Shown here piece by piece: positions 60,216-64,000 of a DNA stretch of 64,000 bases. Every line of letters starts with the position of its first letter. Position 1 is the stretch's first letter. The DNA is from an uncultured Bacilli bacterium. GTDB taxonomy: Bacteria; Bacillota_I; Bacilli_A; RFN20; CAG-288. The stretch covers positions 80,309-144,308 of the forward strand of contig CALVMW010000001.1 in the NCBI GenBank assembly GCA_944349335.1, in the 5' to 3' direction. Under the pieces are notes generated by a model that saw only the letters and a list, made by a program, of their open reading frames with translations, made no database searches and was not told where the DNA came from. A program made the position numbers and the translations under genes.

Positions 60216-61979
60216 ATGAATATTTTCGATGAAAGAATTAAAGCTTTACAAAGAAGGATGCTTCAAGATGGCCTAAAAGCTTATATCATTAAAGCCTCTG
60301 ATCCACACCTTTCTGAAAGCTATGCTGATCATTATGGAGCTATGAGAAAATACTTTTGCTCCTTTACTGGTCAAGATGGAACATTACTAGTAACTTGTGA
60401 TGATTATTATCTATATACTGATGGCCGCTATTTTGTTCAAGCAGAAATCGAATTAAAAAATACTTCCTGTATACTTATGAAGGAAGGTACTAAAGAATGT
60501 TTACCATTAAATGAATTTATCAAGAAAAATGAACTCTATCCTTTAGGTTTTGATTCCTCACTTTTCTCTTTAGATGAAATCAAATCACTTTATCTTGATG
60601 ATAATCACAAAATTATCTCTATCAATTATGATGATATGTACACTAATATCCCTCTTCCAAAGGGTAAAATTTTCAAAATTCCCGATGAATATTTTAGTGT
60701 GACTAGAAAAGAAAGAATCTCTTCACTACTTAACTCTGCTAAAAAAAGCGGAGCTGATTCACTTTTACTAACTTCTTTAGAAGATATCGCCTTTGCTTTA
60801 TCTTATAGAGGGAGCGACATCGCTTGCACTCCTGTTTTTTACTCTTACCTTTTCATAGATAAAGATGAATCATTAACTCTATTTATCGATTTAGATAAGA
60901 TACCGGAAAATTTCGATAATGATATTAATGTTTTACCTTACGAAGAAGTCTATAACTTCTTAAATTCTCGCGAAGATAAAATTGCCGTCGATAAAAGTTT
61001 AGCTAATGCAAAAATAGTTAACCATATTAAAAATCCTCTTTTCATCGTCTCACCCGCTTACTTAGCTAAAGCCGTTAAGGGACCTATTGAAGTCGAGAAT
61101 ATCAAAAGAGTTCATGTTTTAGATGGTATCGCCGTGTTAAAACTCTTTAAGTATTTAAGAGATAATTTTAGAAAAGTGGAACTTGATGAAAAGAAGATCG
61201 CCGACTATATTGACGCGACAAGACTACTTAATAAGGAATGCTTCTCTTTATCCTTTGAAACGATCGCCGCTCTTGATAGTAATGCTAGCATGATGCACTA
61301 TGCTCCTAGTGAAGATAAATTTGCAACCTTAAAAGATGATAGTCAATTAGTATTAGTCGATTCTGGCGGTCAATATTTTGGTGGAACAACAGATATCACT
61401 AGAACTTTCCTTTTGCAAGAACAGCCTTCTAAAGAGATCATTCATGATTATACTTTGACTTTAAAATCTCATCTTAACATGATGATGACAACTTTCATGA
61501 AAGGATGCTCTGGCCGCGCCTTAGATATCAAAGCGCGCGAAGTCATGTGGAAAGAAGGTCTTGATTATAAATGTGGAACTGGACATGGTGTCTCCTATAT
61601 GCTCGGTGTCCATGAAGGTCCTATCGGGCTTAGATATTACACAAGACCTAATATAAAAGACGATTATCCTTTAGAAGTCGGAAATATTGTCACTGATGAA
61701 CCTGGTGTTTATAAAGACTATAAATATGGAATCAGAATAGAAAATGAACTTTTAGTAGTCAAGGATAAATCTACTGATCAAGGTGAATTCTTAACTTTTG
61801 AAACTGTTACATATTGTCCTTATGATAAACGTGGTATTGACGTAGATATGTTAACTGATGAAGAGTTAACATTCTTAAATAATTATCATAAATTGGTATA
61901 TGATAAATTATCACCTCAGATTCGTGATCAAGAACTTTTGGCCTTCCTTAAAGATTGCACTTCTCCTTTAGAAAAATGA
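60216..61979 (+). CDS. pepP: Xaa-Pro aminopeptidase (M24B, three-domain aminopeptidase P type)
   Basis: Creatinase-N-like N-terminal repeats and M24 metal ligands (VDSGGQYFGGTTDITRT, HGVSYMLGVHE, EPG). Confidence 0.8.
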   Translation: MNIFDERIKALQRRMLQDGLKAYIIKASDPHLSESYADHYGAMRKYFCSFTGQDGTLLVTCDDYYLYTDGRYFVQAEIELKNTSCILMKEGTKECLPLNEFIKKNELYPLGFDSSLFSLDEIKSLYLDDNHKIISINYDDMYTNIPLPKGKIFKIPDEYFSVTRKERISSLLNSAKKSGADSLLLTSLEDIAFALSYRGSDIACTPVFYSYLFIDKDESLTLFIDLDKIPENFDNDINVLPYEEVYNFLNSREDKIAVDKSLANAKIVNHIKNPLFIVSPAYLAKAVKGPIEVENIKRVHVLDGIAVLKLFKYLRDNFRKVELDEKKIADYIDATRLLNKECFSLSFETIAALDSNASMMHYAPSEDKFATLKDDSQLVLVDSGGQYFGGTTDITRTFLLQEQPSKEIIHDYTLTLKSHLNMMMTTFMKGCSGRALDIKAREVMWKEGLDYKCGTGHGVSYMLGVHEGPIGLRYYTRPNIKDDYPLEVGNIVTDEPGVYKDYKYGIRIENELLVVKDKSTDQGEFLTFETVTYCPYDKRGIDVDMLTDEELTFLNNYHKLVYDKLSPQIRDQELLAFLKDCTSPLEK

Positions 61980-62488
61980 TTAAGATAGCTTTATTTGAGC
62001 CTGAGAAGCCTGCGAATACTGGAAACATTATTCGTCTTTGTATGGCTTTAAATTGTCATTTAGCGATTATCGGTGAGCCTTCTTTTTCCTTGACCGAAAA
62101 AGCCTTTAGAAGAGCAAGTCTGGATTATATCATCGGCTTTGATATTGAAAGATATAAAGACATCGATATCTTTTTAGAAAAACATAAGAACTTTGAGGGA
62201 TACTTTTCTACAAGATATTCCAAAAATATCTATACTGAAAATGATTATTCAGATACTAAAAAAGATTATTTCTTTATGTTCGGTAAAGAATCTAGTGGTA
62301 TTCCTAAAGAAGTATTAAAAAAATATTATGAAAAGACAATTAGGATACCTATGGCTATCAATGCTAGATCACTAAATCTTGCTGATTCAGTCGCTATCGT
62401 TATTTCTGAATGCTTAAGACAACAAAATTTCCCTGATTTATCTACAAGAGAAACCATAAAAGGGCAAGATTTCTTGTCTAATTATTGA
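61976..62488 (+). CDS. trmL: tRNA (cytidine/uridine-2'-O)-methyltransferase TrmL (SpoU family)
   Basis: IALFEPEKPANTGNIIRLC and FGKESSGIP SPOUT motifs. Confidence 0.8.
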   Translation: MIKIALFEPEKPANTGNIIRLCMALNCHLAIIGEPSFSLTEKAFRRASLDYIIGFDIERYKDIDIFLEKHKNFEGYFSTRYSKNIYTENDYSDTKKDYFFMFGKESSGIPKEVLKKYYEKTIRIPMAINARSLNLADSVAIVISECLRQQNFPDLSTRETIKGQDFLSNY

Positions 62489-62663
62489 AAGATAACTTAA
62501 TTTCGACTATACTAAAAGCAACCTAGTGATATGCGGCTTTCCGACACATTCATTATAGAGCTTATACGCCGATATGGAGTTGAAGGCCTATCTAGTAATA
62601 GGAATCCCGATTATCCGCTGCGGCTCAAACATTAAACTTTGGGAAATTTACCCATCCTAGGCT

Positions 62664-62694
62664 ATACGGATAGTTTCTATCCGTATTTTTTTTA
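62664..62694 (+). terminator. strong intrinsic terminator closing the ~200-nt structured region upstream of tkt
   Basis: atacggatag-tttc-tatccgtat followed by T8. Confidence 0.75.
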
Positions 62695-62744
62695 TTAAGT
62701 AAATTTAGTAAAATTATATATAAATAAATAATCGGAGGTTACTT

Positions 62745-64000
62745 ATGAATTACGATGATATCGCTACAAAATGTCTGCGTTGTCTCTCACTTGATATGAT
62801 TGAAAAAGCTAAAAGTGGTCACCCTGGTATCGCTCTTAGCGCTGCTCCTATAATCTATACTATCTATTCGCGTCACTTAGTTTCAGATCCTAACAATCCA
62901 ACTTGGATCAATCGTGACCGTTTTGTTCTTTCTTGTGGGCATGCTTCAAGCCTTTTATATGCTACTTTACACCTTGCTGGTTATCCTCTTCCTTTAGAAG
63001 AATTAAAAAACTTCCGCAAGTTTGGTTCTTTTACTCCTGGTCATCCTGAACTCGGTATGACACCAGGTGTCGATGCGACAAGCGGTCCTTTAGGCCAAGG
63101 TTTAGCGCAAGCTGTCGGTTTAGCTATCGCTGAAAATCATTTGCGTCATCTCTATCCTGAAGGAAATAGATTGATTGATCATTACACTTATTGTTTAGTA
63201 GGCGATGGTTGTTTAGAAGAAGGTGTCGCAAGTGAAGCTATTGCTCTTGCAGGACTATTAGGTTTAAATCGTTTGATCGTTTTATATGATAAAAATGATT
63301 GCACCTTAGACGGTCCTTTAGCTGATTCCTCTAGAGAAGATACAAAAATGCGCTTTGAAGCTGAAGGATGGAATGTATTAACTGTTGAGGATGGAAATTC
63401 GATCGATGAGATCGACAAAGCGATTATGATCGCAAAGGAAGCTTTAGATAAGCCGACTCTTATCATCTGCAAGACTATTATCGGCTATGGTTCCCCTTAT
63501 CAAAACTCAAATAAGGCGCATGGTAAAGCATTTAATGAAGAAGAAGTTTTAGCAACTAAGAATTTCTTTAACTATAATCATCCAGCTTTTGAAGTACCTT
63601 ATGAAGCTTATAAAGCATTTGATAATTTTAAAAAGAGAGGTGAAGATAGTTTTAATAAATATAGTTCTGATTTAAAAGATTACGCAAATAAATATCCTAG
63701 CGATTATCAAACTTTCACTCTTTCAACTAGTGATATCTCTTCTTTATTACCGACCTCTGCTCCCATTTATGAAAAAGGCTTTAAACAAGCTTCAAGAGAT
63801 ACTTCTTTAAGCTTATTAAATCTCTTCGCTGAAAAGATTCCTTTCTTGATGGGAGGAAGCGCGGATGTTGCTGAATCAGTTAAAACAAAAGTCGCTACTT
63901 TTAAAGATTATTCTAAAGAGCATCCTGAAAATAAGAATCTCCGCTTTGGTATCCGCGAATTTGCGATGGCTTCAGTTCAAAATGGTCTCCTTTTACATGG
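62745..64000 (+). CDS. tkt: transketolase (N-terminal part; continues beyond the window)
   Basis: SGHPGIALSAAP (Tkt N-terminus), GHAS, GPLGQG, and TPP-binding region GDGCLEEG; GGAGG SD 8 nt upstream. Confidence 0.9.
   Translation, partial: MNYDDIATKCLRCLSLDMIEKAKSGHPGIALSAAPIIYTIYSRHLVSDPNNPTWINRDRFVLSCGHASSLLYATLHLAGYPLPLEELKNFRKFGSFTPGHPELGMTPGVDATSGPLGQGLAQAVGLAIAENHLRHLYPEGNRLIDHYTYCLVGDGCLEEGVASEAIALAGLLGLNRLIVLYDKNDCTLDGPLADSSREDTKMRFEAEGWNVLTVEDGNSIDEIDKAIMIAKEALDKPTLIICKTIIGYGSPYQNSNKAHGKAFNEEEVLATKNFFNYNHPAFEVPYEAYKAFDNFKKRGEDSFNKYSSDLKDYANKYPSDYQTFTLSTSDISSLLPTSAPIYEKGFKQASRDTSLSLLNLFAEKIPFLMGGSADVAESVKTKVATFKDYSKEHPENKNLRFGIREFAMASVQNGLLLH

Follow-up and report, generated by a model that had tools for sequence, protein, structure and literature searches.

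A compact, probable 6S RNA gene between trmL and tkt in an uncultured Bacilli lineage

The spacer between trmL and tkt in a 64,000-nucleotide stretch of DNA from an uncultured Bacilli bacterium (hereafter the window) very probably encodes the 6S RNA (ssrS/bsrA-type) of this lineage, with a sigma-A promoter and a terminator of its own. 6S RNA is a well-known small RNA that binds RNA polymerase and holds it back, and to our knowledge it is expected in nearly all bacteria. The RNA is of this known kind, and the window copy is compact and diverged enough to escape Rfam. A first-pass annotation had offered two readings of the spacer, a free-standing small RNA of 6S- or SRP-like size or a cis-regulatory attenuator for tkt. 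The former was borne out, the RNA being free-standing and specifically 6S; SRP RNA has no Rfam support.

Results

The spacer carries its own transcription signals

On the + strand of the window, the gene order is proS, pepP (60216-61979), trmL (61976-62488) and tkt, whose ATG lies at 62745. The spacer was correctly placed between trmL and tkt by the first-pass annotation; it is 256 nt long and contains three signals, a promoter-like site, one terminator-like site and a GGAGG. The last, read from the sequence before the ATG, is the tkt Shine-Dalgarno (62734-62738, + strand), and the ATG itself lies 51 nt past the end of the T-run of the RNA gene, in agreement with the earlier estimate of about 50 nt. 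Further upstream, the pepP stop and the trmL start overlap (ATGA, 61976-61979), and the gene calls of relatives have the same overlap or an abutment; the overlap suggests that pepP and trmL are translationally coupled. Elsewhere in the window, two adjacent tRNA genes (56468-56623, - strand; 62.7 and 72.7 bits with the Rfam tRNA model) lie in the gap between an ORF ending at 56270 and an ORF starting at 56986.

The promoter scan identified a sigma-A/sigma-70-type promoter at 62485-62513 (+ strand, 10 of 12 matches), with a -35 element TTGAAA (62485-62490), a 17-nt spacer and a -10 element TATACT (62508-62513). Transcription is predicted to start near A62520. The -35 element overlaps the trmL stop codon TGA (62486-62488), so that the putative 6S promoter begins inside the end of trmL. 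An equivalent -35/-10 pair, identified by eye, is present in all 14 homologs with upstream sequence and ends 7-12 nt before the closing stem of the RNA.

The only terminator-like site found by the terminator scan in 61900-62900 is an intrinsic terminator at 62664-62693 (+ strand), composed of a 10-bp stem (62664-62686) with a 3-nt UUU loop and a subsequent U-run. The 10-bp stem noted in the first-pass annotation is therefore real, and its U8 tail holds only in part, the run reaching eight T's when the last stem base, T62686, is counted. A terminator hairpin occupies the same place in 11 of the 14 homologs. In the other three, L208:8796-8936(-), L120:360-507(+) and L216:5461-5611(-), a U-run directly follows a 9-10 bp closing stem and no separate terminator hairpin is present; the closing stem seems to double as the terminator stem there. 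The primary transcript of the window gene is predicted to be about 174 nt long (about 62520 to 62693). From the promoter and the terminator, both conserved in homologs, we infer a discrete small RNA made from its own transcription signals.

Homologs in related uncultured Bacilli

The window belongs to a metagenome scaffold. Its TrmL protein has many relatives at 55-68% identity, some labelled 'Bacilli bacterium'. Homologs of the spacer element were collected from the loci around the genes of these TrmL relatives and from one DNA-pattern scan of metagenome contigs; the scan returned at least 120 loci, mostly chance matches, which were filtered with nhmmer and with the covariance model R1 described below. 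At least 14 further distinct homologs were obtained, all from metagenome contigs of related uncultured Bacilli and linked by nhmmer E-values of 1e-34 to 2e-5. A TrmL synteny search with one genome per species yielded a single useful locus, L002. The surroundings of trmL in more distant relatives (L003-L018, L217, L220-L224) yielded no copy of the RNA, which confines the trmL-6S-tkt arrangement to a narrow clade. In L220/L221 (1735-1982), a 248-nt spacer after trmL precedes an S41 peptidase gene and contains a terminator and no 6S homolog; L217 and L222-L225 are without any such spacer after trmL.

All homologs share the same order of parts: the promoter -35/-10 pair, a stem formed by the two ends of the RNA, GCGNN followed by UUUCCGACA, then GUYGAARGC, a hairpin and RRAUCC, and finally GGGRA, behind which comes the terminator hairpin or, in L208, L120 and L216, the closing stem with its U-run.

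Transitive homology links the RNA to the Rfam 6S family

Scanned at gathering threshold, the whole 64-kb window gave two Rfam matches, the tRNAs, and nothing in the spacer. The gathering score of the Rfam 6S/SsrS model (RF00013) is 46.4 bits. In a permissive scan of 62400-62800, this model scored 15.1 bits (E 0.67), short of that threshold, through a local match at 62582-62610 that corresponds to the apical hairpin. All other matches in the permissive scan (PK-HAV and L20_leader, both driven by the terminator, and SNORA26) were sub-threshold and at chance level. Since the window copy lies far under the Rfam threshold, its membership in the 6S family rests on transitive homology.

Twelve homolog loci were scanned in the same permissive manner, and RF00013 matched at the position of the element in nine. 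L137 (47.3 bits) and L216 (47.1 bits) exceeded the curated threshold; L208 (45.0 bits), L120 (43.4 bits), L117 (39.4 bits) and L176 (37.9 bits) followed, and then L002 (26.6 bits), L092 (24.9 bits; same RNA as L090) and L162 (22.7 bits; same RNA as L134). No 6S match came from the permissive scan of L089, L085 and L200, where the RNA is present in its L086, L082 and L093 versions. Four of the matches (L137, L216, L208 and L176) are full-length and cover model positions 1-187. The RF00013 scores form a continuous gradient within one family, with the window copy at the far end. An Rfam scan had been suggested with the first-pass annotation as a check on the spacer; it returned nothing significant in the spacer itself, and its answer came from the homologs L137 and L216, which pass RF00013.

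To avoid circularity, the window and its close relatives were kept out of the covariance model R1, which was built from the six homologs at 38-47 bits with RF00013, none of them close to the window copy. R1 gave a sole significant match in the 64-kb window, full-length at 62522-62661 (46.6 bits, E 8.9e-10); the next-best match had an E-value of 0.97. Over about 1.26 Mb of fetched loci, the other family members were the only sequences that R1 recovered, with scores of 43-105 bits. When applied to a 783-nt E. coli locus, its best match fell inside the annotated ssrS (18.2 bits, E 2.7e-4). The R1 matches show that the predicted window RNA is homologous to sequences accepted by the curated 6S model of Rfam.

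Comparative evidence for a 6S-like rod

The structured 6S core, as delimited by the R1 match, spans 140 nt (62522-62661, + strand), with the two strands of the closing stem at its ends. This stem, P1, pairs CCUAG (62522-62526) with CUAGG (62657-62661). It is followed by a linker (62527-62537) that ends in a G/C-rich GCGGC, GCGCG in most relatives; the block is conserved in alignments A3, A5 and A7 and has no conserved pairing partner. Helix P2 pairs UUUCC (62538-62542) with GGAAA (62642-62646). A 15-nt 5' strand (62543-62557, GACACAUUCAUUAUA) and a 3' side of about 15 nt (62627-62641) form the central bubble, which opens into a terminal arm (62558-62626) supported by covariation, RNAalifold and the Rfam consensus. 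Within the arm, the outer helix pairs GAGCU (62558-62562) with GGCUC (62622-62626), and the inner helix pairs GCCGAUA (62568-62574) with UAUCCGC (62612-62618) around a conserved C-C mismatch. A GA/UC pair (62582-62583 with 62605-62606) and the apical hairpin CCUAU-CUAGUA-AUAGG (62587-62602) complete the tip. The tip of the Rfam 6S consensus, Gc-AaG-CCcgg...ccgGG-AA-gC, matches GA-AGG-CCUAU...AUAGG-AA-UC of the window, and the family motif is GA-ARG-stem-AA-UC. Taken together, the comparisons show a predicted 6S rod: a short closing arm leads to the 5-bp P2, then to a bubble with about 15 nt on each side, and finally to a terminal arm that is long and irregular. For a 6S RNA, the proposed structure is compact, its upstream arm of 5 + 5 bp being unusually short, and nothing in the window RNA evidently corresponds to the '-35-like' region.

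The first-pass annotation had named a covariation analysis of homologous spacers as a further check. This was performed on a hand-curated alignment of 15 sequences (A5) with the proposed structure of 34 pairs, and it supported the structure: standard pairs filled 94.0% of cells compared with 68.0% after shuffling (0 of 500 shuffles reached the observed value), double changes occurred in 24 of the 34 pairs, and the covariation score was 0.647 against 0.197 in the control, all with pair counts that are inflated because A5 was fitted by hand to the structure. Sliding the 3' partners by 1-3 columns reduced pairing in A5 to 38-56%. By helix, double changes were present in 5/5 pairs of P1 (100% of cells paired in the 15 sequences), 7/8 of the outer terminal helix, 8/9 of the inner helix and 4/5 of the apical hairpin. 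P2 was also paired in 100% of cells, being invariant in the 15 sequences (family form UUUCC/GGRAA), and showed no covariation; the GA/UC pair never varies on both sides. Covariation therefore neither supports nor contradicts these two elements. P2 was independently proposed by RNAalifold, and the Rfam 6S model aligns it to its own uGAgCC/GGuUCa helix; by this alignment P2 corresponds to what would be the bubble-adjacent 6S helix that is unwound by product-RNA synthesis.

The structure failed when projected on a plain MAFFT alignment (A4), because the helices were out of register, and the hand alignments A5 and A6 were consequently padded with N's, which biases pair counts toward the structure. 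Two kinds of unfitted control were used for A5, RNAalifold on plain MAFFT alignments of 6 and 14 sequences and an alignment-free test of flank complementarity. With 6 sequences, RNAalifold recovered P2, both terminal helices and the apical hairpin; with 14, it recovered the inner helix and the apical hairpin, with compensatory changes in 10 of 11 pairs. The flank test found P1 helices of 5-10 bp and a Fisher combined p of 1.6e-10 for the family, the 5-bp P1 of the window itself not being significant alone (p = 0.78). Compensatory changes are thus shown to support P1 and the terminal arm of the predicted fold.

Single-sequence folding of the + strand was no better than chance (z = -1.18; 30 of 200 shuffles fold as well). 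The structured region posited by the first-pass annotation stands on comparative evidence from covariation, and not on the thermodynamics of a predicted single fold. The - strand fold looked better (z = -2.48) and was rejected as a candidate, since neither terminator nor promoter makes sense on that strand and the family lends it no support. Among the individual hairpins listed earlier, cctat/atagg (62587-62602) is conserved, covaries and is the apical hairpin. The gatatgcggc/gccgatat hairpin is present in the window and is not kept by relatives, and it conflicts with the covarying GCCGATA/TATCCGC pairing of the inner helix. The ccgc-tg-gcgg hairpin would have a sterically impossible loop of 1-2 nt, its halves belonging to two different helices, and tggg/accca (62640-62654) is not positionally conserved, its GGG lying in or next to the 3' strand of P2.

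Two further structural observations were made. In L093:2100-2260 (same RNA in L187 and L200), an insertion of about 18-20 nt lengthens the apical hairpin to CCGAC, 24 nt and GUUGG; the tip of the modelled terminal arm is tolerant of extension. RNAalifold on A4 also proposed a pairing CGACA(Y)/(G)UGUUG between two invariant blocks, 62541-62546 and 62577-62583 in the window. This pairing could be a conformer of the free RNA that hides the product-RNA start, or a coincidence, and the invariance of both blocks puts it beyond the reach of covariation.

A predicted template for product RNA

UUUCCGACA is invariant in 15 of 15 sequences. R1 places the CCGACA of the family on CCGAUA of E. coli ssrS, in which U44 is the experimentally determined start site of the product RNA (PMC3988568). 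In the window RNA, the product RNA is predicted to start opposite C62545, with the invariant A62546 adjacent. A conserved adenine next to the start and a GG at product positions 4/5 or 5/6 are hallmarks of 6S RNAs (PMC8414754); in the predicted product RNA, GG falls at positions 4/5, the E. coli arrangement, and the adjacent A of its template is conserved.

On the model of the established 6S mechanism, we propose that the RNA would mimic an open promoter and lodge in the active site of the housekeeping RNA polymerase holoenzyme, so that sigma-A transcription would be damped under nutrient scarcity. During outgrowth, the polymerase would take the RNA as a template and, starting opposite C62545, synthesize a short product RNA, 5'-GUCGGAAAGCCGC... 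in the window and, in the family, 5'-GUCGGAAA with a G/C-rich stretch behind it. The linker GCGGC would template positions 9-13 of the product RNA, counted from the start site; such a templating role would explain the conservation of GCGNN before UUUCC despite the lack of a pairing partner. Product-RNA synthesis would unwind P2, and the freed GGG strand would then fold into a hairpin in the 3' bubble, by which the RNA would be released from the polymerase.

In the window, the candidate release hairpin pairs CUCAAA (62624-62629) with UUUGGG (62638-62643, + strand) and competes with P2 for the G's, as in the E. coli type. When the 3' segment was folded alone, in nearly all 15 sequences the hairpin had the G's of the P2 3' strand in its 3' arm. 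Arm sequences vary among members (CUCAAA/UUUGGG, CCUUA/UAAGG, CCUAG/CUAGG, CCUGG/CCGGG) and keep no fixed register, and the folding energies are modest (-1.7 to -7.8 kcal/mol), usually better than those of shuffles and no better in L212. The predicted hairpin appears to resemble the release hairpin of E. coli and the 3'-bubble hairpin of B. subtilis (PMC8876501, PMC3988568).

A lineage-specific small RNA that is 6S-like in shape only and does something else, such as base-pairing regulation or binding of another protein, would fit the mere 15 bits of the window copy with RF00013 and an upstream arm far shorter than in the 6S RNAs studied. We consider it very improbable. Full-length alignments put two homologs over the curated 6S threshold, another four lie within 9 bits of it, and the most conserved block of the family is the predicted product-RNA template, aligned with the E. 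coli start site. In addition, truncated B. subtilis 6S-1 RNAs consisting of the bubble and two short arms can still run through the whole 6S cycle in vitro, although their affinity is about 10-fold lower (PMC8876501), so that a short upstream arm is compatible with 6S function.

Comparison with known 6S RNAs

The likeness to B. subtilis 6S-1 (bsrA) is one of features. Both have the Firmicute 6S rod, including a P2 that is (in the window RNA, would be) unwound by product-RNA synthesis. The product RNA of 6S-1 starts 5'-GUUCGG..., with the same initial G as that predicted for the window RNA, 5'-GUCGG... A conserved adenine beside the start site (PMC8414754) is a further feature in common, and a hairpin can form in the 3' bubble of 6S-1 (PMC8876501), as is predicted for the window RNA. 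They differ in size, 6S-1 having about 190 nt and long helical arms that include a '-35-like' region, in contrast to the 140-nt core and the 5 + 5 bp upstream arm of the window RNA. 6S-1 was discovered next to aspS, according to Suzuma 2002 as cited in PMC3299989; on that account, aspS is a neighbour both of B. subtilis 6S-1 and of the homolog L216, whereas the window gene lies between trmL and tkt.

With E. coli ssrS, R1 aligns the family over the full length. Both RNAs have CCGA, the start nucleotide and A at the start of the 5' bubble and ACCU at the start of the 3' bubble, and in both the 3' bubble may form a hairpin together with the 3' strand of the helix that is unwound. The apical motif reads stem-AA-UC-CUAA in the window RNA and stem-AA-GC-CUUAAAA in ssrS. 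Each has a same-strand protein gene close downstream, fau in E. coli and tkt in the window. The match is low, with 18 bits for ssrS with R1 and 15 bits for the window RNA with RF00013, and product synthesis starts at U44 (with ATP) in E. coli, unlike the predicted start at C62545 (with GTP) in the window. E. coli 6S RNA matures through processing, and it is not known to have its own terminator immediately behind the closing stem.

Lactic acid bacteria provide a precedent for divergence. Their divergent 6S RNAs, including those at non-canonical Weissella loci, are missed by covariance-model searches and were recovered through synteny together with promoter and terminator (PMC8414754), the same route as was needed for the window RNA. 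The 6S genes of lactic acid bacteria are flanked by rarA and uspA (PMC8414754), as opposed to the trmL-6S-tkt order of the window clade.

Relation to tkt

Of the 14 distinct homologs collected, 12 have tkt downstream of the RNA, as the window does, a linkage unexplained by 6S function. It could point to a cis-acting leader, riboswitch or attenuator of tkt, in which a ligand-sensing fold upstream of the terminator decides on read-through. Most of the tkt-linked homologs are close relatives with the trmL-RNA-tkt order, and the RNA also stands directly upstream of tkt in L120 and L208, where the upstream gene is different. In L120, the closing stem and U-run are followed within about 30 nt by the tkt Shine-Dalgarno and ATG (L120:366-535) and no promoter is recognisable between the RNA and tkt; in the window, the promoter scan gave no strong tkt promoter.

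The fold, however, is that of 6S RNA and comes with its own conserved promoter and terminator, and no Rfam riboswitch or leader family was found at gathering threshold, in accordance with the failure of the first-pass annotation to match a known riboswitch. The sole leader match, L20_leader in the E-value scan, is terminator-driven and scored 19 bits against a threshold of 58.7. The window terminator, which begins at 62664, overlaps no conserved helix, P1 ending at 62661; with terminator and helices thus separate, nothing could switch the terminator. In 10 of the 12 tkt-linked homologs, a TGnTAnAAT extended -10 element, identified by eye, lies between the terminator and tkt. The window has AGTAAAAT at this position, where the promoter scan was negative. 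Outside the tkt context, L216 has the RNA directly after hisS-aspS and before a UPF0154 gene, and L117 has it before an LCP-family gene. Because the RNA is also found beside aspS or an LCP gene, and because tkt is usually provided with a promoter of its own, the attenuator reading of the first-pass annotation is not supported, and we regard a tkt leader as very unlikely, marginally more so than a small RNA of merely 6S-like shape. A riboswitch for tkt (TPP, PRPP and others) was ruled out by context and fold. T-box leaders were detected by Rfam in two of the homolog loci, at L216:8795-9007(-) (116.6 bits), upstream of hisS within the hisS-aspS-6S cluster, and at L208:12207-12414(-) (107.5 bits).

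Proximity of a 6S RNA gene to a downstream gene has a precedent in E. coli, with 20 nt between ssrS and the downstream fau. Co-transcription of 6S RNA with the next gene is known, and E. coli ssrS and fau are co-transcribed. There may be some read-through into tkt in the window, resembling the ssrS-fau case, and in the L120 organism the 6S promoter may drive tkt by read-through.

Other RNA classes and the small open reading frame can be set aside quickly. SRP RNA, tmRNA and RNase P had no support in either Rfam scan, and their conserved motifs were unmatched. A small protein gene has next to no probability: the 34-codon ORF at 62531-62635 (MRLSDTFIIELIRRYGVEGLSSNRNPDYPLRLKH) is present in the window and the same frame is open in L002 (41 codons), but it has no Shine-Dalgarno before its ATG. 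Of the 14 other family members, 10 lack a counterpart, L120 having an unrelated ORF in another frame only, while L212 and L218 have versions shortened to 22 and 17 codons. The substitutions are compensatory for RNA helices rather than synonymous, and the absence of reading-frame conservation refutes a protein gene.

Discussion

The trmL-tkt spacer is best read as a 6S RNA gene, and in most respects as an ordinary housekeeping RNA gene that reveals no new regulatory principle; its value lies mainly in annotation and in the short-armed variant. More speculatively, and with a small chance of being right, the RNA could be a naturally minimised 6S, with an upstream arm of 5 + 5 bp and no '-35-like' region, that is physically coupled to tkt in this clade and in at least one relative, L120, forms the 5' leader of tkt, the closing stem acting as a leaky terminator. 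If this were true, one and the same transcript would sequester RNA polymerase and also supply an enzyme of the pentose-phosphate pathway.

The uncultured Bacilli lineage in which the Rfam 6S model misses the gene occurs in metagenomes from fermentation and other sources. With the 15 sequences and their structure, the family model could be extended and 6S RNA thereby annotated in genomes of the lineage. A natural short-armed 6S RNA fits the in-vitro sufficiency of the bubble and two short arms (PMC8876501), and the lineage may serve as a natural test of it.
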